Sequence record: PQ338057.1
Reading direction: 5' to 3' (one strand)
Length of the DNA: 64,000 nt
Origin: a phage
Positions 12,117-57,600 of this stretch are shown in pieces. Position 1 is the first letter of the stretch, and every line of letters starts with the position of its first letter. Under the pieces are notes generated by a model. That model worked only from the letters and a program-made list of their open reading frames with translations. It did no database searches and was not told where the DNA came from. A program made the translations under genes and the position numbers.

Positions 12117-13769
12117 ATGTTTTGTGTGCAATGTGAACAAACTATCCGTACTCCGGCAGGAAACGGCTGCTCATACGCGCAGGGGATGTGTGGTAAAACG
12201 GCGGAAACTTCTGACCTTCAGGATTTACTCATCGCGGCGCTGCAAGGGCTTTCTGCCTGGGCGGTAAAAGCGCGTGAATACGGCATCATCAACCACGATG
12301 TTGACAGCTTCGCGCCACGTGCCTTTTTCTCAACCCTGACCAACGTTAACTTCGATTCTCCGCGTATTGTCGGCTACGCTCGTGAAGCGATTGCCTTGCG
12401 CGAGGCGCTGAAAGCACAATGCCTGGCTGTAGATGCCAACGCGCGCGTCGATAACCCGATGGCTGACCTGCAACTGGTGAGCGATGATCTCGGCGAGCTG
12501 CAACGTCAGGCAGCAGAATTTACCCCTAACAAAGATAAAGCGGCGATTGGCGAAAACATTCTCGGCCTGCGTCTGCTGTGCCTGTATGGCCTGAAAGGTG
12601 CGGCGGCCTATATGGAACACGCGCATGTTCTCGGTCAATACGACAACGATATTTATGCCCAGTACCATAAAATCATGGCGTGGCTGGGGACCTGGCCTGC
12701 CGATATGAACGCGCTTCTTGAGTGTTCAATGGAAATCGGCCAGATGAACTTCAAAGTGATGAGCATTCTGGATGCAGGCGAAACCGGTAAATACGGTCAC
12801 CCGACGCCAACCCAGGTCAACGTCAAAGCGACGGCGGGTAAATGCATCCTGATTTCCGGTCACGATCTCAAAGATCTCTACAACCTGCTGGAACAGACCG
12901 AAGGCACGGGCGTTAATGTTTACACCCACGGCGAAATGCTGCCTGCGCATGGCTACCCGGAGCTGCGTAAATTCAAGCATCTGGTCGGTAACTACGGCAG
13001 CGGCTGGCAGAATCAGCAAGTGGAGTTCGCTCGTTTCCCTGGCCCCATCGTGATGACCTCGAACTGCATCATCGACCCAACCGTAGGCGCTTATGACGAT
13101 CGTATCTGGACCCGCAGCATTGTTGGCTGGCCTGGCGTGCGTCATCTGGACGGTGATGATTTCTCTGCGGTTATCACCCAGGCGCAACAGATGGCAGGCT
13201 TCCCGTACAGCGAAATTCCGCACCTTATCACCGTGGGTTTTGGTCGCCAGACGCTGCTTGGCGCTGCTGATACGCTGATTGATCTGGTGAGCCGTGAAAA
13301 ACTGCGTCATATCTTCCTGCTTGGTGGCTGTGACGGCGCACGCGGCGAGCGCCACTACTTCACCGATTTCGCCACCAGCGTGCCGGATGACTGCCTGATC
13401 CTGACCCTCGCCTGTGGTAAATATCGCTTTAACAAACTTGAGTTTGGCGATATCGAAGGTCTGCCGCGTCTGGTAGATGCAGGTCAATGTAACGATGCTT
13501 ACTCAGCGATTATTCTGGCTGTCACTCTGGCAGAGAAACTGGGCTGTGGTGTGAACGATCTGCCGCTGTCGCTGGTGCTCTCCTGGTTTGAACAGAAAGC
13601 GATCGTCATTCTGCTGACGCTGCTTTCTCTGGGCGTGAAAAATATCGTCACCGGCCCGACTGCACCTGGTTTCCTGACACCAGACCTGCTGGCGGTGCTG
13701 AACGAGAAATTCGGCCTGCGTTCTATCACCACTGTTGAAGAAGACATGAAGCAACTGTTGAGCGCGTAA
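12117..13769 (+). CDS. hcp: Hybrid-cluster protein (hydroxylamine reductase)
   Basis: 550 aa from MFCVQCEQT; N-terminal Cys cluster. Confidence 0.95.
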
Positions 13770-44714: not shown

Positions 44715-45521
44715 ATGAGTGTTATGAATCCAATAAGTTCTAATATATTTAATGCTGAATTTTTAAACACCCCGGCAGCGGCACTTGCCGCATGGATTTC
44801 CATTATTGGAGCTGTTATAACTTTGGTGACGATAGTTATAAGAGCACTATTCAAATATAGAAAATCTCATGATGTAATTTTGAAAAAATCAGGAATACCT
44901 GCGTTTATATTAAATTTTTTTCTTATACGAATATCATTAAAAAGGCTGCCTACTATCACATGGGCTGAAAAATCAATCACGGTTCTCTTTTCACTTCTTT
45001 TTTTGTGTGCAATTTATATTTTTGGTCCAGTTTTCATCCAAGCCATTAGAACCCCACCAAATAGCACATTGCTTTATTGGATAAAGTCCGGTGAATCATT
45101 TTATATGTCAAAAAAACTGGCGACTGCAGCTACAATATTAACCACTCCTGATTGGGAAATATCAAAAGATGATTGCGAAGAGTCATCCTCTGCCAGTACA
45201 GAGAAGTACAAATCATTAACTATCGAACATAAAGAAATTCTTTGTAAACTACTAACCACTGATGAAGGGAATACTTACATTGATGAAGAAGTCAAGAATT
45301 TCGTTAAAGACAAATTCTTTATCTATTCCTTTGCCCCAACAACCATATTTATTCTATTATGGATTTCTTTGGGTTTTATACTGACCATTCACTATTCTAA
45401 AAAAGTTAGGAAATATATTCTGACTGAACAAAAAAATGCAATTCATTGGGCATATGGTGAATTCAAGACAGAAGGAATCTATTCAATATATCACGAGTTA
45501 GAACGTAAGACTCACCATTAA
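44715..45521 (+). CDS. AT-rich cargo gene encoding a polytopic membrane protein
   Basis: 268 aa with several hydrophobic helices; SD aggtgg; anti-oriented between S and V where P2 has no gene. Confidence 0.6.
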   Translation: MSVMNPISSNIFNAEFLNTPAAALAAWISIIGAVITLVTIVIRALFKYRKSHDVILKKSGIPAFILNFFLIRISLKRLPTITWAEKSITVLFSLLFLCAIYIFGPVFIQAIRTPPNSTLLYWIKSGESFYMSKKLATAATILTTPDWEISKDDCEESSSASTEKYKSLTIEHKEILCKLLTTDEGNTYIDEEVKNFVKDKFFIYSFAPTTIFILLWISLGFILTIHYSKKVRKYILTEQKNAIHWAYGEFKTEGIYSIYHELERKTHH

Positions 45522-47888: not shown

Positions 47889-49655
47889 ATGAACACCACA
47901 CTGACACCCGCAGATCTCGATCCCCGTCGGCAGGCCATGCTGCTGTACTTTCAGGGATACCGCGTAGCCCGCATTGCTGAAATGCTGGGCGAGAAAGTTG
48001 CAACCGTTCACAGCTGGAAAAAACGCGACAAGTGGGGTGACTATGGGCCGCTGGATCAGATGCAGCTCACCACCGCCGCACGCTACTGCCAGCTCATTAT
48101 GAAGGAGCACAAAGAAGGGAAAGATTTCAAAGAGATTGACCTGCTGGCGCGCCAGTCGGAGCGCCATGCGCGGATCGGCAAGTTTAACAATGGCGGCAAC
48201 GAAGCCGACTTAAACCCTAACGTCGCCAACCGCAACAAAGGCCCGCGTCGTCAGCCGGAAAAGAACGTTTTCACCGATGAACAGATTGAGAAGCTGGAAG
48301 AAATCTTCCATTCCTCCATGTTCAACTACCAGCGCCACTGGTGGGAAGCCGGAAAAACCAACCGCATCCGCAACCTGCTGAAGTCACGCCAGATCGGCGC
48401 GACCTTCTATTTTGCCCGTGAAGCCCTGATTGACGCCCTGCTAACCGGGCGTAACCAGATTTTCCTTTCCGCCAGCAAGGCACAGGCCCACGTCTTTAAG
48501 CAGTACATCATCGACTTCGCCAAAGAAGTGGAGGTGGAGCTGAAAGGCGATCCGATAGTGCTTCCTAACGGGGCCACGCTGTACTTCCTCGGCACCAATG
48601 CCCGCACGGCCCAGAGTTACCACGGCAACCTGTATCTGGATGAATATTTCTGGATACCGAAATTCCAAGAGCTGCGCAAAGTGGCTTCCGGTATGGCTAT
48701 TCACAAAAAATGGCGACAAACCTATTTTTCCACGCCATCCAGCCTGACACACAGTGCTTATCCGTTCTGGTCCGGTGCGCTGTTCAACCGTGGGCGCAAC
48801 AAAGCCGACAAGGTGGACATCGACCTGTCCCACAGCAATCTGGCCCCCGGCCTGCTGTGCACAGACGGGCAATACCGCCAGATAGTCACCGTGGAAGATG
48901 CGGTGCGCGGCGGCTGTAACCTGTTCGACCTCGACCAGCTACGCATGGAGTACAGCCCGGACGAATACCAGAACCTGCTGATGTGCGAGTTCGTGGACGA
49001 TCTCGCGTCCGTGTTCCCGCTCAGCGAGCTGCAAGCGTGCATGGTGGACAGTTGGGAAATCTGGACCGACTTTCATGCACTGGCCCTGCGCCCGTTTGGC
49101 TGGCGCGAAGTGTGGATCGGTTATGACCCGGCAAAAGGTACGCAGAACGGCGACAGTGCCGGATGCGTGGTGGTGGCACCGCCAGCCGTGCCGGGTGGTA
49201 AGTTCCGCATTCTTGAGCGTCACCAGTGGCGCGGGATGGACTTCCGCGCCCAGGCTGACGCCATCAAAAAACTGACCGAGCAGTACAACGTGACCTACAT
49301 CGGCATCGACTCGACAGGTGTCGGCCACGGGGTTTACGAGAACGTGAAAGCGTTTTTTCCAGCCGTCCGGGAGTTTGTCTACAACCCCAACGTTAAAAAC
49401 GCCCTGGTACTCAAGGCCTACGACATTATCAGTCACCGTCGTCTGGAGTTTGACGCCGGACACACCGACATAGCGCAGTCATTTATGGCAATCCGTCGCG
49501 CCACCACCGCCAGCGGCAACCGCCCAACCTATGAAGCCAGCCGCAGCGAAGAAGCCAGCCATGCCGATCTGGCCTGGGCAACAATGCACGCACTGTTTAA
49601 CGAACCGCTGCAGGGCGAGTCCGCCAATACCAGCAATATTGTGGAGATTTTTTGA
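47889..49655 (+). CDS. Terminase large (ATPase) subunit, P2 gpP-like
   Basis: 588 aa. Confidence 0.9.
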   Translation: MNTTLTPADLDPRRQAMLLYFQGYRVARIAEMLGEKVATVHSWKKRDKWGDYGPLDQMQLTTAARYCQLIMKEHKEGKDFKEIDLLARQSERHARIGKFNNGGNEADLNPNVANRNKGPRRQPEKNVFTDEQIEKLEEIFHSSMFNYQRHWWEAGKTNRIRNLLKSRQIGATFYFAREALIDALLTGRNQIFLSASKAQAHVFKQYIIDFAKEVEVELKGDPIVLPNGATLYFLGTNARTAQSYHGNLYLDEYFWIPKFQELRKVASGMAIHKKWRQTYFSTPSSLTHSAYPFWSGALFNRGRNKADKVDIDLSHSNLAPGLLCTDGQYRQIVTVEDAVRGGCNLFDLDQLRMEYSPDEYQNLLMCEFVDDLASVFPLSELQACMVDSWEIWTDFHALALRPFGWREVWIGYDPAKGTQNGDSAGCVVVAPPAVPGGKFRILERHQWRGMDFRAQADAIKKLTEQYNVTYIGIDSTGVGHGVYENVKAFFPAVREFVYNPNVKNALVLKAYDIISHRRLEFDAGHTDIAQSFMAIRRATTASGNRPTYEASRSEEASHADLAWATMHALFNEPLQGESANTSNIVEIF

Positions 49656-50680
49656 TGGGAAAGAGTAAGAAAAACCGCGCTGCGGCGACGAACCAGATCC
49701 AGCATAAAAACCAAACTTCAGCCGAAGCATTCAGCTTCGGTGATCCCGTTCCTGTTCTGGACCGCCGCGAATTACTGGACTATGTGGAATGCGTAAAGAT
49801 GGACCGCTGGTATGAGCCACCCGTAAGTTTTGACGGACTGGCGCGAACATTCCGCGCCGCCGTACACCACAGTTCACCGATTGCAGTAAAGTGCAACATT
49901 CTGACCAGCACCTACATCCCTCACCCGCTGCTCAGCCAGCAGGCGTTTTCACGTTTTGTGCAGGACTATCTGGTTTTTGGTAACGCCTACCTGGAGAAAC
50001 GCACGAACCGATTCGGTGAAGTTATCGCCCTTGAGCCTGCGCTGGCAAAATACACCCGACGCGGATTAGACCTAGATACCTACTGGTTTGTGCAATACGG
50101 CATGACCACGCAGCCGTATCAGTTCACGAAAGGCAGCATTTTTCATCTGATGGAACCGGACATCAACCAGGAGATCTACGGCCTGCCCGGCTATCTTTCT
50201 GCCATCCCATCCGCCCTGCTCAACGAGTCCGCCACGCTGTTCCGCCGAAAGTATTACATTAACGGTAGTCATGCAGGCTTCATCATGTACATGACCGATG
50301 CCGCGCAGAACCAGGAAGATGTGAACAACCTCCGCAATGCGATGAAAAGTGCCAAAGGCCCTGGCAACTTCCGCAACCTGTTTATGTACTCGCCTAATGG
50401 TAAAAAAGACGGACTTCAGATTATCCCGTTGTCAGAAGTCACAGCGAAGGATGAGTTTCTGAATATCAAGAACGTGAGCCGTGATGACATGATGGCGGCA
50501 CACCGCGTGCCGCCGCAAATGATGGGAATTATGCCTAATAATGTCGGGGGGTTTGGGGATGTGGAGAAGGCTAGCAAGGTATTCGTAAGAAACGAATTGA
50601 TGCCCCTGCAGAAACGATTGCAGGAACTAAATAACTGGTTGGACGAAGAAGTGCTCAATTTTTCAACCTATGAGCTTTAG
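49652..50680 (+). CDS. Portal protein, P2 gpQ-like
   Basis: 342 aa; overlaps P stop. Confidence 0.9.
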   Translation: MMGKSKKNRAAATNQIQHKNQTSAEAFSFGDPVPVLDRRELLDYVECVKMDRWYEPPVSFDGLARTFRAAVHHSSPIAVKCNILTSTYIPHPLLSQQAFSRFVQDYLVFGNAYLEKRTNRFGEVIALEPALAKYTRRGLDLDTYWFVQYGMTTQPYQFTKGSIFHLMEPDINQEIYGLPGYLSAIPSALLNESATLFRRKYYINGSHAGFIMYMTDAAQNQEDVNNLRNAMKSAKGPGNFRNLFMYSPNGKKDGLQIIPLSEVTAKDEFLNIKNVSRDDMMAAHRVPPQMMGIMPNNVGGFGDVEKASKVFVRNELMPLQKRLQELNNWLDEEVLNFSTYEL

Positions 50681-50688
50681 TTTTAAAA

Positions 50689-50716
50689 CGAAGACCATTA
50701 GGTCTTCGCTTTATTT
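50689..50716. terminator. Hairpin between convergent portal and retron RT genes
   Basis: cgaagacc-atta-ggtcttcg followed by ctttattt. Confidence 0.45.
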
Positions 50717-51660
50717 AAAGGGTTCTTTCCATATTTTTTTTCTAATTTGCTAATATAAGTTATTAATCTCCTATGGCTTTTTGAATCCACACTTAAAATA
50801 AATGACAACCATCCCCTAACGTGTTCTATCTCAGAAGACTTACCGCAAAATATATGATGTATCTTTGCTCTAATTTCTTTATATTTTTCTCTACCTATCC
50901 CAACTTTCTCTTGTGAAATAACTAAACCTGTAACTTTCCTCTGACTACGAGGCCCACTAATACAAGTTTTTTTTGAGTTAATAACCAATCCTTCACTTGG
51001 GATTATAGAAAATAAAAAATCACGTGCTTTAACAACCTTTTTCATAGACTGTGCAGATAAGGTGAGATCATCGGCATATCTCGTATATATCAAGCCCCGA
51101 CTACCTGCATAACCCTGAATACGATAATCAAGTTTAGAACATATTAGATTAGCTAATTTAGGTGATGATGGAGCACCTTGTGGTAGCAGATTTTTATAAC
51201 AACATATTTTTGTCAAAACTGAAGATATTAGTCGATTATAACCAAGAGAATGGAACACTCCAAAAACTTTGTTAGCAGTTAAACTTGGGAAAAAATCCTC
51301 CAAATCAATATTCAGTATAAAGTTTGCCCCAATATGCGGGGTAGCATTATTCAAAATAGATTGGTGCTTTTCAAATCCAATAGAAAAAGGAGATGACGAC
51401 AGTTTATCTAAAATGTTACGTAGAACCCATCCTTGTAAGGCTTTAAGTTCTCGAGAAGGTTGGTAAATGGTTCTCATTCTCTTCTCTGGGCCTTTCTTTT
51501 CTACAGTGTAGATCCTATAGCGAAAATCAGCTGTATAGATTAACAACCGAAGTGTTTCAACAGATATGCGAGTCGCCTTAGACATGTCATGCAAATTGTT
51601 CATGACAGGTAGGCCGAGATTTCTCAATCTAAAAGTGTTCAAATATTCAGCGGATTTCAT
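50698..51660 (-). CDS. ret: Retron-type reverse transcriptase
   Basis: 320 aa; motifs NATPH (NAxxH), YADD, VTG; AT-rich; ncRNA immediately upstream; from memory matches the Ec86/Eco1 RT. Confidence 0.95.
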   Translation of the reverse strand: MKSAEYLNTFRLRNLGLPVMNNLHDMSKATRISVETLRLLIYTADFRYRIYTVEKKGPEKRMRTIYQPSRELKALQGWVLRNILDKLSSSPFSIGFEKHQSILNNATPHIGANFILNIDLEDFFPSLTANKVFGVFHSLGYNRLISSVLTKICCYKNLLPQGAPSSPKLANLICSKLDYRIQGYAGSRGLIYTRYADDLTLSAQSMKKVVKARDFLFSIIPSEGLVINSKKTCISGPRSQRKVTGLVISQEKVGIGREKYKEIRAKIHHIFCGKSSEIEHVRGWLSFILSVDSKSHRRLITYISKLEKKYGKNPLNKAKT

Positions 51661-51666
51661 GAAAGT

Positions 51667-51836
51667 TGCGCACCCTTACGTCAGAAAAAACGGGTTTCCT
51701 GGTTGGCTCGGAGAGCATCAGGCGATGCTCTCCGTTCCAACAAGGAAAACAGACAGTAACTCAGATTCAATGCAGGATGCCGAAACAACATCCAGAGGTT
51801 GACCTTAATGATAAACCTCTCGCTAAGGGTGCGCAT
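51667..51836 (-). ncRNA. msr-msd: Retron msr-msd non-coding RNA
   Basis: 12-nt terminal inverted repeats tgcgcaccctta (51667-51678) and taagggtgcgca (51824-51835); long internal hairpin; ends 7 nt before the RT start. Confidence 0.85.
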
Positions 51837-52746
51837 ACGGAATCTTATCATAGTTAAATGTTGATTTTCTACGGTTTTCAAAATTCATAATCTCAAGCCG
51901 CAATCGGTCAAGTGTCTTTCTATCAAAGACGCTCCTAACATAGCTAGCCCCCAAAGCAGTGACCTGATAACCATCAGTCATTTGAAGTATTTTTCGTTCA
52001 TTTATTAGACGAGAAACAACGGATCTAACAATAATTTTAGATAAAACATCATCTTGCTTTATCGCTTTAAAAGCTAGTTCACACAGTGTGCGGTAGTTGA
52101 CACTATCCAGTAAATAGATACAAGGCAATAGAAACCGCTCTGCGTATAATATATTTCCAATATCTTTTGATACTTTATTTTCTTTCCTAACCTTCTTAAT
52201 AGATGCCATTAATTTTTTATATAATCGTAATTTTCTGGCAACATCAATAGATGAATCACACATTTCTTTTAGTTCATTTGAACTACAACGCAAAACAGAT
52301 TTTGAATTAAACTTACGCAACAGGCGAACAGGACCATAGTTAATAAAGCTACGTTTTGATTTAAATTTTGCATCTTGAATGCAAATCAACTTTCTCCTTA
52401 AGTTTTCATTATTAGAGAACGCACCAAGCTCTGTGAAAGACCCCGGACTTTCAGGAAATAAAATTATTACATCGACAGCTTCAGCCAGAATATTTTCTAA
52501 ACTTAAAAGGCTATGCTGCCCTTGACCAGCCAAAAGATCATCAAATAGATCTTCTGGATAAAATATATCAACATCACTGAACTTTGCTAAAAATTGTGAT
52601 AATTGATGACGCCAAGATTGATGATTAGCAACGTCACCACCACATAGAAAAATGGTTATTTTAATATTAGCTCCTCGATAGAAGCCTTTCTTTGTGAGAT
52701 GTCCTATAAGCTGTTGTTGCTGCTCATCGGTAAATTTTTTATTCAT
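51823..52746 (-). CDS. Retron effector (predicted nucleoside-deoxyribosyltransferase-like N-glycosidase with C-terminal DNA-binding region)
   Basis: 307 aa, AT-rich; first gene of the retron operon with its 3' end overlapping the msr start; Rossmann-like N-terminus KITIFLCGG. Confidence 0.75.
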   Translation of the reverse strand: MNKKFTDEQQQQLIGHLTKKGFYRGANIKITIFLCGGDVANHQSWRHQLSQFLAKFSDVDIFYPEDLFDDLLAGQGQHSLLSLENILAEAVDVIILFPESPGSFTELGAFSNNENLRRKLICIQDAKFKSKRSFINYGPVRLLRKFNSKSVLRCSSNELKEMCDSSIDVARKLRLYKKLMASIKKVRKENKVSKDIGNILYAERFLLPCIYLLDSVNYRTLCELAFKAIKQDDVLSKIIVRSVVSRLINERKILQMTDGYQVTALGASYVRSVFDRKTLDRLRLEIMNFENRRKSTFNYDKIPYAHP

Positions 52747-52821
52747 AATCTCCCCGCTTTTTTTTCTACTTTATACATCAAGTTATGAATAGATCCAATC
52801 TCCATACCACATGGCGCGCGC

Positions 52822-52840
52822 TCGTATCCCCGCCACGCCT
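52822..52840. other. Possible cos (cohesive-end) remnant
   Basis: Reverse strand reads GGCGTGGCGGGGA, matching the first 13 nt of the 186/P2 19-nt cos as I recall it. Confidence 0.3.
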
Positions 52841-53218
52841 GCCCGCTTTATGCAGTGGTTTTCATGCACATGCATAACATGAGCAAAAGCCCGCCAGTTC
52901 TGGCGGATCTGAGCAAAGACGATCCTCAATCGATCATGCGATTTCATGCAGCATAGTCATGCACTGTCAAGGAAGTGAAAATCCGTATCTGAATGGCCAC
53001 TTGAAAAACGGATCATACGGGTTTACAAAGATGAATGTTCGCTGTGAACGGGAAGCGGAAGTTAACTTTCAGATAACATAATCCATATGCACGAGAACCT
53101 CTAAAATAGAATGGGACACCTAAGCGGGGTACTTACAACGATTCTTTCCATATTCACAGTTAACACTCTGTTTGGCGTATTTTTATTCAAATAGCAAACA
53201 CCAATAAAAGGAGTTTCC

Positions 53219-53554
53219 ATGAACAATATTCCCCCTATACCACAGTTAGGAATTTATGTCTCAAAAATCGATCCCACCCTACGTATCACTGTAACCGATG
53301 TTGATATTGTTGATGGTGAGGATGATTCTCCTGATGATGAATTGTTTTATTTAGTCCACTGGATCGAGGGGGAAGATGAAAGTGATATGACAGCAATGGG
53401 ATTTGAGCTAGACCCAGTAGAGTGGCAGGCTTTCGTTGAATCTGAGCAATTAGTGTTTGAGCGTGATCCGTACATGGATTCAATCCCCGAAAATTCAAAC
53501 TTGGCAAAGATTCGGGATTTTCTCATGAAGACTAAACAGAATGATCATTCGTAA
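53219..53554 (+). CDS. Small highly acidic protein of unknown function
   Basis: 111 aa; strong SD aaaaggag; D/E-rich runs DGEDDSPDDE and EGEDESD; accessory locus. Confidence 0.5.
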   Translation: MNNIPPIPQLGIYVSKIDPTLRITVTDVDIVDGEDDSPDDELFYLVHWIEGEDESDMTAMGFELDPVEWQAFVESEQLVFERDPYMDSIPENSNLAKIRDFLMKTKQNDHS

Positions 53555-53746
53555 GTGTAAGCATCCATCAGGAAAATGGTTTTGTAAGTGAATCATCAAC
53601 TTTTAGAGAGTCTCAGACACTCCCACTTCTGCTTCTGACACAAAGCGGACGATCACTTATCAAAATAACCGCCCACCTTACGCCTTATTTCACTCATTGC
53701 CCAAACTAGCCCCCATCAGAATGAATCCTCCTGGGGGCAACATTTC

Positions 53747-53981
53747 TTAATGCAGCCAGCTGTCGTCCTCCCACACCTTCTGCATAATTTTCATCACTTG
53801 TTTTCTTTCTTCATCCAGTTGCAGTCCGGTTAGTTCCACACCGTTAGAGCTACCTTTGCGAATGCGAATTACCGTTTTGGGATACAGGGGGCGCAGATTG
53901 CGGTAAAGCTCGGATTCAAGGGCGTCCAGGGTAGACTGGCTAATCTTCTGCTCTTTATCGATCATTATTTCAATGCGCATA
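53747..53981 (-). CDS. DinI-family protein (Tum C-terminal-domain-like)
   Basis: 78 aa from MRIEIMIDKE; DinI-like pattern ending WEDDSWL; SD gaggtgac; downstream of the SOS box. Confidence 0.7.
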
Positions 53982-53990
53982 AAAGTCACC

Positions 53991-54179
53991 TCAGCTGATG
54001 ACATCCATTGAGCGGTTGTATTCGTGGCTTCTGATTTTTGCCATGAGTTCATCAGTCAATTCAGAAACCCACTGCAGAGCCAGCCCCTTCTCTTCATCAC
54101 TACACTCACTAGCCGCTACAAGCTTAAGAAAAAAATCAATGCGCTGGAGCTTCAAAGACTCCAAAAAATAGTCCTGCAT
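53991..54179 (-). CDS. Small protein, first gene after the SOS box (Tum N-terminal-like?)
   Basis: 62-aa ORF; function unknown. Confidence 0.4.
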   Translation of the reverse strand: MQDYFLESLKLQRIDFFLKLVAASECSDEEKGLALQWVSELTDELMAKIRSHEYNRSMDVIS

Positions 54180-54221
54180 CTTTCCTCCTATGACACCAAA
54201 ACAATACTGTATACATAACCA

Positions 54222-54237
54222 CTGTTTATATTTACAG
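54222..54237. promoter_or_regulatory. LexA (SOS) box
   Basis: ctgtttatatttacag = CTGT-(AT-rich)8-ACAG consensus, about 45 bp upstream of the 54179 start. Confidence 0.6.
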
Positions 54238-54331
54238 TATATAATAATCTTACTGATGTAAAACGTTTTTTTACGTTCATCGGCCTGATATGCCTGGTAT
54301 TATTAAGAGCACGAATTGTCAACCCGCGTAA

Positions 54332-56752
54332 TTAATACAGGTTCCGCCACTTATCATCTTCCTTCAGACGCTGGTTCCGATAGAAGATACGCAGGCCTGC
54401 TCCTGACGGAATACTGCCGCCGCGAAGGAGCAAATCGACTTCTTTCTCGCTGCCATCAAATCCCCTGGACTTCAGTTCATAGACGAGCTGCTGTCGCTGA
54501 TGGTCTGTAATTCGCTGTTTGTAGTCTTTACGCCGTTTCGGTTTCACCTGGCGTAACCTTGCAGCCAGTTCCCGGCGCTCTTTTTTGCTCATACTGTGCA
54601 GGTAATTGTGCAACTCCTTGTCATTCATACGGGTAATATCCGTTCTGGAGTCCCCATCAGCTGATTTGTCTTTCCCTTGTTGGTTCAAATTTTCAGCAAG
54701 GGGACAGTTATTGCCACGAGTCCAAGGGGCGCAAGCGCCCTGGTCGGCTGCCGCCTCCTGAACGTCAACGGCCTTACGAACCATTTTCCACTTCACCGCA
54801 TGAGTGCAGATCTTGCCCTCTGCAATGGGTGACCAGATGCCATAAATACGAATACCGTGATCGCCATATGCGGTCGGTTCTTCGTTGATTTCATAAGCAG
54901 TTCTGATGAGGTGATATTTGCGGGGAACCAGTACGCCGCCCTGCTTCATGATGTAGGTGGCAAAACAACCAGCATCAGCAGCAGCCAGGATTGCATCAAG
55001 ACGCGGGTTATCCAGTACCGGCGCACCTGCTTTTTTGTCACCCTGTTGCCTTGCCGCCTGACCAGCCAGCAATCGCAGTTCACGGTAAGCCTGACGCCCC
55101 GGAATGCCAAAGAAGCGGAATTGCTGAACACGATGCAGAGACGCCCAGGCATTAACGTATTCAGCGTTATCACGCAGGGATTTACCCGTTTCCTTGCTGA
55201 TCTCCCCAGCCAGACCACGCCCGTCAATGTTCTTACTGATGTATTTCGCGATATAGCTTGTTGGCGTACCTTTGCGCGGGTTTATCAGCTCAGACTTAAA
55301 GCGTGGTCCCGTGTTATTGCCCAGCTCCTCGCGGTCTTCACGGATGGCAAACTTACGCAGTAATGCAGTGATGGCGCGGCGGTCTTTTTTACGCATGAAA
55401 CACATGAGATGCCAGTGCACAGTACCGTCATGATGCGGCTCAGCTACCCGCACGCCATACCAGCGCAACTCGGCTTTATGCATAGCCTTACGAAATGCAG
55501 CAAACATGCCGACCAGATAATCGCTACTTTGTCTTACCGTCGCGTTTGTCCAGGTCGGGTTTGGTCTGCCGTTATTGAGCGTGGAATGGAAACGCGACGG
55601 ACAGGTGATAGTGTAGAAAACGGCACAGTCACTGCGCATTTCCGCGATAAGCTCCAGACCTTTAACACAGGCCATCATCTCATTGCGGCGATGCGCCGGG
55701 TTGCTGCTGCTGGCGTTTACCACATCTTCCATATCCAGCGTGTCGCCGTCTTCGTTCACCAGTTCATGAGAACGAAAAAACTCCAGCGACTTACGGCGCT
55801 GCTCACGTTTATGCATCACGGCTTCATAGCTGACATAGGGGGATGCTTTTTTGCTGACCAGGCAGACAGCACGCAACTGCTCTTCCCGCCATTCGCAACG
55901 CATCTTCCATAATTTCCGATACCACCAGTCGGCACACAACATACGCGCCAGCGAACCCGGGATGAGTTCATAGAGCACTGGTTTGCGGCGGTTTATTTTC
56001 CGACGAAGTTTCTCAAACGCAGGCGGGATAACATCCAGACGCAGGGTTTCCGCTGCCACCTTTTCCCATGTCTTGCGGATTTCTTCTGGCTTAACGTCAT
56101 CGGTGGCATACAAATCACCACAAGCGTCCTCAAGACACATGCTCATATGCGCTGCTACCAGGGTGGACAGGCGTTTCACCTGATCCTGGCTCATTTCAGG
56201 CAGGATCAGCAGACCCTCCAGCCCTTGATGGCTTGCCATAAAACGGAAAGAAACAGATAGCTGACTGTCACGTACACAATCCAGTCGCTCCAGACATGGC
56301 TTAATCGTCTCACGCAAATAGCGGGAATAAGCCTTTGGCCTGCCCAGGCTGCTGAAGTATTCAATACGTTGCATCAGCGGCTTGCTGATATGGGAAGGCT
56401 GGGCGTTTACGTCCGCCAGAATGACCATGTCCGGATTAAAACGCTGCTGCTCATGCGCCAGCTTTGCCCGGCTAATGAGCTTATCCTGCTCCATTTCGCG
56501 CTGGACAGGATCACGGGATTCATTAAAGAAATAACGCTCCCAGACCTGCTCACTCAGTGCCTCGCGGCGCAGTTGTTCCTGCTCGTTATCGGCAGCGTAC
56601 AGAGTGATCAGGTTTGAAAGTGCAGACTCCGGCGCAACTTCCGCCGGGTCCAGATAAGGGTTAATGGCCTTTTTCGAGCCGTTCCATGAAAATGCTGCGG
56701 CGGCCTCGTTAAAGCCGCTGCAATAGTTCATATCGTCATGACTCATACACAC
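54332..56752 (-). CDS. Rolling-circle replication initiator (P2 gpA-like HUH endonuclease)
   Basis: 806 aa; HWH motif (TVHWHLM) and paired Tyr (SYIAKYISK). Confidence 0.88.
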
Positions 56753-57600
56753 ACTCCGTACACGGCAGAACTATCCACGCCACGCGAAGGATCAAATCCC
56801 AACCAGCAGCTCGGCCCGGAAACAGCAATGATTTCTGTTGCAGATTTACCCTCGCCAGCTGACACGCCGATGCTGCGTTTTGCCTTGATATAGTGGTGAG
56901 TAAAATTGCGATACAGCGAACGAATCAGGGATGTGTCATTGTTAGAAACAATGACCGGATGTCCTTCTGATGACCGATGTTCAAGAATGGATGCCAGGTG
57001 ATACTGGTCATCTTCAGTGAAACCATCAGTGTGATAGCCGGAAAACGTACCGTCATACGGCGGATCGCAATACACCACATCCCCCACCTGCAGCATCGCC
57101 AGCGTTTCATCAAAGCTCGCGCAGATAAACGTTGCCCGCTGGGCTTTCTCTGCAAATGCGCGAATTTCTTTTTCAGGGAAATACGGATTTTTATAATTAC
57201 CGTAGGGAATGTTGAAATACCCGCTCTTGTTATAGCGACATAAACCACGGTAACCGTGACGATTGAGATACAGGAAATATATCGCCTTCATGAAATCAGT
57301 AATTTCAGTTGAGTAATTAAACTCCTGTCTTATGTTGTAATAAGCCAGCTCACTGTTTGCTTCCTCAAATAAAACTTTGGCACGAGATATAAACGCTTCG
57401 CAATCAGCGGCAATCTTTTTATAGAGGTTGATTAAATCAGGATTAATATCCGCAACCAGATAGCTGGGGTAATCCGTCGCCATCATCACAGCACAAGAAC
57501 CCGCGAAAGGTTCAACCAGTCGCGGGCCAGCAGGAAGGTATTTTTTCAGTTCGGACATAATGGCGGTTTTATTACCCGCCCATTTCAGGATGGTGCTCAT
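56743..57600 (-). CDS. dam: DNA adenine methyltransferase (Dam-like)
   Basis: LKWAGNK and DPPY motifs; start taken at [11 protein letters not shown]. Confidence 0.85.

Follow-up and report, generated by a model that had tools for sequence, protein, structure and literature searches.

A defective P2-like prophage with retron Ec86 (Retron-Eco1) of E. coli B in its cos-proximal accessory hotspot

Retron Ec86 (Retron-Eco1) is the reference retron for retron genome editing and was the first retron with a cryo-EM structure of the complex with its effector. It was classed as type II-A3, with an effector that combines an NDT-like and a DNA-binding domain (Mestre et al. 2020). The retrons Sen2 (St85), Eco3 (Ec73) and Vch2 of type II-A1 are likewise three-part systems with an NDT-like and DNA-binding effector, and both Ec86 proteins carry the NCBI label 'retron St85 family'; the reverse transcriptases (RTs) of the two types, however, belong to different clades, clade 9 for II-A3 and clade 1 for II-A1 (Mestre et al. 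2020). BL21(DE3) and BL21-AI are named as native hosts of the Ec86/Eco1 operon (Wang et al., bioRxiv 10.1101/2023.08.16.553469; PMC11754653), and msDNA in wild-type B strains was reported by Lim & Maas 1989, as related in a paper that cites them. Branched, RNA-linked msDNA is further documented for this sequence by the cryo-EM structures of RT-msDNA.

The Dcm trigger, the requirement for a CCTGG motif and the inactive filament of Ec86 were described by Wang et al. (bioRxiv 10.1101/2023.08.16.553469). In that work defence was abolished when the CCTGG motif was mutated, and activated Ec86 depleted adenine, adenosine and deoxyadenosine. The host Dcm of MG1655 does not set the system off, a point on which the preprint is silent. 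The NAD(P)+-hydrolysing filament and the Dcm trigger of type II-A3 are summarised in PMC12673091, according to which Carabias et al. 2024 (Mol Cell) identified the effector as an N-glycosidase hydrolysing NAD(P)+; ADP-ribose was seen bound within the filament. The same source calls the detailed effector mechanism still unclear, and its chemistry is described in two ways that do not yet fully agree, one with NAD(P)+ hydrolysis and an ADP-ribose adduct, the other with loss of adenine, adenosine and deoxyadenosine.

Retrons are among the systems found in the gpA-gpQ cos-proximal region of P2-like phages, a defence hotspot in which P2 itself carries old and tin; many P2 hotspots hold more than one system (Rousset et al. 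2022, PMC9122126, with ~18,000 P2-like loci). In the Klebsiella P2-like phages 4LV2017 and Kp4860-7, a retron-type RT gene and a partner gene follow directly after the portal gene, in the slot that Ec86 occupies and with its orientation, but the RT of the 4LV2017 type is ~32% identical to the Ec86 RT and the partner protein has 350 aa. The P2-like prophage of E. coli B was named Rybb*B and stated to carry retron Ec86 (PMC3032704).

The window analysed here is a stretch of 64,000 nucleotides (sequence record PQ338057.1), numbered from its first letter. Its locus 50698-52746 is almost certainly retron Ec86 (Retron-Eco1, type II-A3) of E. coli B, which a defective P2-like prophage carries in its accessory hotspot near cos. 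The 2.15-kb DNA of the locus was 100% identical to that of E. coli B REL606, BL21(DE3), BL21-AI and other B derivatives, and window positions 30650-64000 aligned to REL606 with 0 mismatches over 33,351 bp. Agreement with Ec86/Eco1 (PDB 7v9u, 7v9x, 7xjg, 8qbk-8qbm, 9jm0) extended to the proteins, the locus DNA including the ncRNA and the flanking prophage genes. On the minus strand the operon starts just inside cos with the effector, continues with msr-msd and ends with the RT, toward the portal gene (Table 1). The features common to retrons (RT motifs, an ncRNA bounded by a1 and a2, a priming guanosine) were present, as were all the sequence features of type II-A3, namely the effector architecture, identity to Ec86, CCWGG in the msDNA stem and E106 of the effector.

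A preliminary description, made from the letters of the window alone, had read the locus as a complete three-component retron with a 320-aa RT, a ~170-nt msr-msd region and, upstream of it, a 307-aa ORF; all three parts were found at the positions it gave. It had also called the block markedly AT-rich, which was confirmed by a GC content of 0.355 for the retron compared with 0.548 for terminase and portal and 0.526 for gpA (~0.53-0.55 in the flanking phage genes). The match to Ec86/Eco1 of E. coli B that it had given for the RT and the ncRNA proved right, at full length for the PDB chains and at 100% identity for the DNA. It was equally correct in expecting a known rather than a new anti-phage system: the Ec86 locus is already known, and the published structure and anti-phage mechanism belong to the identical sequence. 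Since the locus is the reference Ec86 itself, we class it as already known.

Table 1. Positions of the retron parts and of neighbouring features in the 64,000-nucleotide window
Feature	Position	Strand	Basis
GC-rich 8-bp hairpin between the convergent portal and RT genes	50689-50708	both	terminator-like site on the + strand
Ec86/Eco1 reverse transcriptase, 320 aa	50698-51660	-	ORF; PDB, Pfam, PADLOC and NCBIfam matches
msr-msd ncRNA gene, ~170 nt, between the a1 and a2 repeats	51667-51836	-	inverted repeat, hairpin, RNA fold; 5' end approximate
a2 inverted repeat (3' arm of the ncRNA), ending 6 nt ahead of the RT start codon	51667-51678	-	repeat search
msDNA sequence, 86 nt (msd template on the minus strand)	51680-51765	+	match to the 86-nt Ec86 msDNA sequence; published residue names
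Long msd hairpin, the DNA stem-loop (DSL) of msDNA	51695-51748	both	complementarity of the arms, folds
CCTGG Dcm site in the msDNA stem (msDNA positions 19-23)	51698-51702	+	motif search
Priming (branching) guanosine, in the UAGC motif directly after a1	51823	-	assigned by position
Ec86/Eco1 effector, 307 aa, N-terminal NDT-like/N-glycosidase and C-terminal DNA-binding domain	51823-52746	-	ORF; database matches
a1 inverted repeat (5' arm of the ncRNA), over the last effector codons	51824-51835	-	repeat search
Putative homologue of the P2 19-nt cohesive end (cos)	52821-52839	both	alignment with the P2 cos junction and phage vB_EcoM-813R9
Acidic 111-aa ORF, pI 4.05, in the interval equivalent to old/tin (cos to DinI/gpA)	53219-53554	+	ORF; alignment to P2

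The ncRNA gene is delimited by a perfect 12-nt inverted repeat, in which TGCGCACCCTTA at a2 pairs with TAAGGGTGCGCA at a1. This 12-mer occurred at two sites only in the 64-kb window, with 0.00 expected from 100 shuffles. Within the repeat, the arms of the long msd hairpin (51695-51719 and 51724-51748) comprise 25 nt and are 88% complementary, so that both the terminal repeats and the hairpin noticed in the preliminary description stood. When the minus-strand RNA of 51665-51838 was folded, the minimum was -81.1 kcal/mol versus -46.4 +/- 4.2 for shuffled sequences (z = -8.3), and 0 of 200 shuffles folded as well. The predicted structure had the expected architecture, in which a1 pairs with a2, msr forms two small stem-loops and msd the long hairpin. 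In Ec86 this DSL of the msDNA contacts the effector (bioRxiv 10.1101/2023.08.16.553469).

Read on the minus strand, a1 (51835 down to 51824) is followed by G-C, forming a UAGC motif, in agreement with the conserved priming guanosine directly 3' of a1 in UAGC (PMC11754653). The G at 51823 doubles as the last base of the TAG stop codon of the effector gene, so the effector coding sequence includes the 5' part of the ncRNA. The 86-nt sequence of Ec86 msDNA had a single exact match, starting at 51680. The residue names in Wang et al. (dT25, dG55, dT56 and dT57) served as an independent check and agreed with a numbering of the msDNA from 51680. The classical count for Ec86 msDNA is 86 nt, one more than in the cryo-EM structures, which have 85 nt (PMC12673091). 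The msDNA itself folded as a hairpin (DNA fold z = -7.3). CCWGG was found once in the ncRNA region, as the CCTGG of the msDNA stem, and GATC was not found there; phage Dam has been reported as the trigger of other retrons (bioRxiv 10.1101/2023.08.16.553469). An Rfam scan of 50000-54500 at E<=1 matched no family to the ncRNA; Rfam has no matching family, so the scan speaks neither for nor against the retron call. A full-text literature search with the ncRNA sequence string matched no paper.

The RT carries NATPH at residues 105-109, YADD at 195-198 and VTG at 243-245, the three motifs by which it had been recognised. It aligned with PDB 7v9u_A ('RNA-directed DNA polymerase from retron EC86') over residues 1-320 of 320 without visible difference (E 4.5e-214). 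The annotation of the protein differs between sources, as RefSeq REL606 gives a shorter RT of 888 nt (295 aa) whereas structural work uses 320 aa. The RT might instead derive from a group II intron or a diversity-generating retroelement (DGR), with the inverted repeats being incidental. It does have the generic RVT_1 fold (Pfam, 2.9e-25) and is weakly similar to RTs of group II introns (PDB 6ar1 at 3.7e-05, 7uim at 1.4e-04). However, the group II intron RT model TIGR04416 reached 46.4 bits against a cut-off of 300, while the NCBIfam model retron_St85_RT reached 287.6 bits against a cut-off of 235, and no Rfam group II intron was found in 50000-54500. PADLOC gave RT_II-A as the best model (7.1e-128), and 25 of the 25 PADLOC models among the matches listed for this protein were retron RT classes. 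The protein has no maturase or endonuclease extension, and no direct repeat of at least 40 nt that could represent a template/variable (TR/VR) pair occurred within 49600-54400. With the full-length match to the Ec86 RT in addition, an origin from a group II intron or DGR is so improbable that it hardly needs to be entertained, and the profile-HMM classing as a retron RT agreed with the preliminary description.

The effector aligned with PDB 7v9x_C ('Retron Ec86 putative ribosyltransferase/DNA-binding protein') over residues 1-307 of 307, again without visible difference (E 1.2e-203), and the alignment of RT and effector to published Ec86 (PDB 7v9u, 7v9x, 8qbk) thus came out as anticipated. The best PADLOC model was NDT_II-A (2.7e-94, residues 8-293), and the NCBIfam model STM3845_fam was matched with 176.6 bits (cut-off 100). 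No matching model was found for the effector in Pfam or in PHROGs. D69 and E106, the active-site residues of the Ec86 effector (bioRxiv 10.1101/2023.08.16.553469), were both present.

Judged from the literature on the identical sequence, msDNA synthesis and defence would proceed from these parts as follows. The RT would recognise the folded ncRNA and prime DNA synthesis from the 2'-OH of the guanosine after a1 (window position 51823), copying the msd region into the 85/86-nt msDNA hairpin, which would remain joined to the msr RNA. The RT-msDNA would bind dimers of the NDT-like N-glycosidase effector to give a filament with the effector in a low-activity state; as the filament keeps activity low, the RT-msDNA would be the antitoxin and the effector the toxin. 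A Dcm-type cytosine methylase of an infecting phage would methylate CCTGG in the msDNA stem (window positions 51698-51702), and this methylation would activate the effector, with hydrolysis of NAD(P)+ and depletion of adenine derivatives. Activation of the effector would then halt phage replication by abortive infection.

According to its annotation in REL606, the surrounding P2-like prophage lies between ybjL and rcdA, is clearly defective, lacks much of the capsid and tail modules and contains several pseudogenes. The retron could accordingly be a decayed remnant as well, present as sequence but giving neither msDNA nor defence. Its three parts are intact, however, and its proteins match those used for cryo-EM. 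Furthermore, Wang et al. obtained defence with the unit and its native promoter amplified from BL21(DE3), and reported that transformation of BL21(DE3) with induced Dcm failed but that a delta-Ec86 derivative behaved differently. For msDNA experiments, laboratories that edit with Eco1 remove the endogenous operon from BL21-AI (PMC11754653). We therefore regard a non-functional remnant as highly improbable, and an intact Ec86 as the preferred reading, with no feature of the sequence speaking against it.

In a sigma-70 consensus scan, no convincing promoter was found, either in the stretch from cos to the effector ATG or ahead of msr. A weaker match seen by eye, TTGGAT-17 nt-TATAAA on the minus strand at ~52797-52769, was below the scan threshold and is not claimed as a promoter. 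At the other end of the operon, the GC-rich hairpin that separates the two convergent genes, portal and RT, extends over the RT stop codon; it probably acts as a bidirectional terminator.

Among 5,426 complete E. coli genomes, the Ec86 locus was found in 48, with one copy per genome, and only ~4 of these 48 carriers appeared to be isolates from outside the B lineage as judged by name and source. When the locus was compared by megablast with 50,697 phage records, no match was obtained, and tblastn with the Ec86 RT against phage records gave only relatives of <=33% identity; Eco1 is thus absent from the deposited phage genomes of this collection.

The retron is flanked by genes for a Phage_portal protein (49652-50680, + strand) and a Phage_GPA replication protein (54332-56752, - strand), as expected from the preliminary placement between the portal gene and replication gene A. 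That placement had been equated with the site where P2 carries old/tin, which holds for the gpA-gpQ hotspot but not for the side of cos. The putative cos homologue lies 75 bp upstream of the effector ATG and forms the boundary of the retron cargo slot; its 19-mer is common to REL606, vB_EcoM-813R9 and FDAARGOS_433. A search of the window for the P2 cos 19-mer with <=3 mismatches gave only a chance match at 12399, because the homologue differs at more positions, and it was found by alignment. With cos at this place, the retron fills the interval between the portal (Q) stop codon and cos.

In the P2 annotation, cosL occupies 1-19 and Q ends at 187, which leaves 168 bp between cos and the end of Q; old/tin follow on the far side of cos, toward gpA. 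The old/tin genes resemble the retron as AT-rich anti-phage cargo beside cos in a P2-like element, but their proteins are unrelated to it. A simple replacement of old/tin by the retron in the same cargo slot (the TO region) would be in keeping with Rousset et al., who treat the whole gpA-gpQ interval as one hotspot with old/tin within it. The P2 TO region, however, holds cargo between gene A/orf91 and cosR, and the retron was found in the interval from the Q stop codon to the cos homologue, with a separate 111-aa ORF on the cos-to-gpA side. In addition, the clinical isolate FDAARGOS_433 has kept the retron (99.7% identical, in the same portal-side slot) while its gpA-side cargo is a different three-gene block. 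We consider such a replacement unlikely, and the retron is better described as portal-side cargo.

From three comparisons (P2, vB_EcoM-813R9, whose portal-side slot holds a Hypoth_Ymh protein, and FDAARGOS_433), we tentatively suggest that the hotspot of this P2-like lineage may consist of two independently varying cargo slots, one on each side of cos and transcribed divergently away from it. This idea is a refinement of the known hotspot and not a new phenomenon. The gpA-side ORF of the window matched PHROG 17127 at 2e-70, yet tblastn of its product against phages gave no match, for which the low-complexity filter of BLAST is a possible cause. The very acidic 111-aa protein may represent a novel small factor for defence or counter-defence, e.g. 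a DNA mimic.

For a system as well described as Ec86, the present analysis adds modest detail: window coordinates for the Dcm site, the msDNA and the priming guanosine, the sharing of this guanosine with the effector stop codon, and the portal-side placement relative to cos, with a separate gene where P2 has old/tin. It also showed that a complete retron can be recognised and correctly named from its motifs and repeat architecture, without tools. We infer that the prophage carries the retron as cargo that may exclude competing phages, and if the hotspot does have one slot on each side of cos, the retron slot would be the extreme left end of the packaged genome.

The position of the Ec86/Eco1 retron relative to cos was determined by sequence comparison with P2. 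The diverged homologue of the P2 cohesive end reads CTCGTATCCCCGCCACGCC, while the P2 cohesive end reads GTGCTTTCCCCGCCTCGCC, and the ATG of the retron effector is found 75 bp downstream of this homologue. The location of the cos homologue therefore places the retron on the same side of cos as the portal gene, whereas the old/tin accessory genes of P2 are on the other side. The slot that truly corresponds in position to P2 old/tin is occupied by a 111-aa ORF. The product of this ORF is very acidic, with a pI of 4.05 and 26 D+E compared to 7 K+R residues. No match to it was found in Pfam or NCBIfam. It matched PHROG 17127 (function unknown) at 2e-70, although tblastn against the phage collection found nothing. 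In the clinical E. coli isolate FDAARGOS_433, which has a 99.7% identical retron in the portal-side slot, three different genes replace the 111-aa ORF in the gpA-side slot.

Features of the retron, its prophage and a related phage (L001, REL606 prophage region; L005, Klebsiella phage 4LV2017)
Feature	Window	Other record	Strand	Remarks
P2-like prophage	~38033-61506	L001 7384-30857		
DUF6216 protein gene	~44715-45521	L001 14066-14872	+	GC 0.33-0.36
RT, 320-aa form	50698-51660		-	
RT, RefSeq/PGAP form		L001 20049-20936		888 nt, 295 aa
Effector TAG stop codon	51823-51825		-	Last base is the ncRNA priming guanosine
Diverged homologue of P2 19-nt cohesive end (cos)	52821-52839			Sequence comparison with P2
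111-aa ORF	53219-53554		+	AT-rich stretch, gpA side of cos
DNA adenine methylase, prophage-encoded	~56743-57600	L001 26094-26951	-	Just upstream of gpA
Different RT and 350-aa hypothetical protein		L005 3217-5200		Portal-side slot

Klebsiella P2-like phages use the same portal-side slot as Ec86, but their RT is only about 32% identical to the Ec86 RT. The RT of 4LV2017 and its 350-aa companion may represent another retron type.

Within the retron, the effector's last residues, A-H-P, are encoded by the a1 repeat (the 5' inverted repeat of the ncRNA). As the stop codon also ends in the priming G, the effector and ncRNA genes overlap by 13-14 nt. The RefSeq/PGAP annotation of the REL606 RT starts at the internal Met26, while the RT of the solved structures is the 320-aa form, the N-terminal helix of which is reportedly required for Eco1 to dimerise (PMC12673091). 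The 295-aa form thus looks like an annotation with a truncated N-terminus. Since no GATC sites were found in the Ec86 ncRNA/msDNA region, the msDNA would be no substrate for a GATC-specific methylase.

The P2-like prophage is defective. A lysozyme fragment directly follows the scaffold gene O, and capsid N to holin Y are absent; from the tail sheath to the D region only a VgrG/gpD fragment is left, fused next to a recombinase fragment. The P2-like relative in FDAARGOS_433 is more complete. The AT-rich DUF6216 gene is an opposite-strand insertion between the baseplate V gene and a virion morphogenesis gene, a candidate second cargo slot; FDAARGOS_433 lacks the gene at this position.

Eco1 was present in 48 complete E. 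coli genomes. NZ_CP029371.1 ('Strain C, cow's milk') carries a B-type locus with 100% identity. Judging by strain name and source, only about four genomes (H115-H118), two of them from human isolates and the others from wastewater and a farm environment, appear to lie outside the laboratory B lineage, and the retron therefore seems to be rare in nature.
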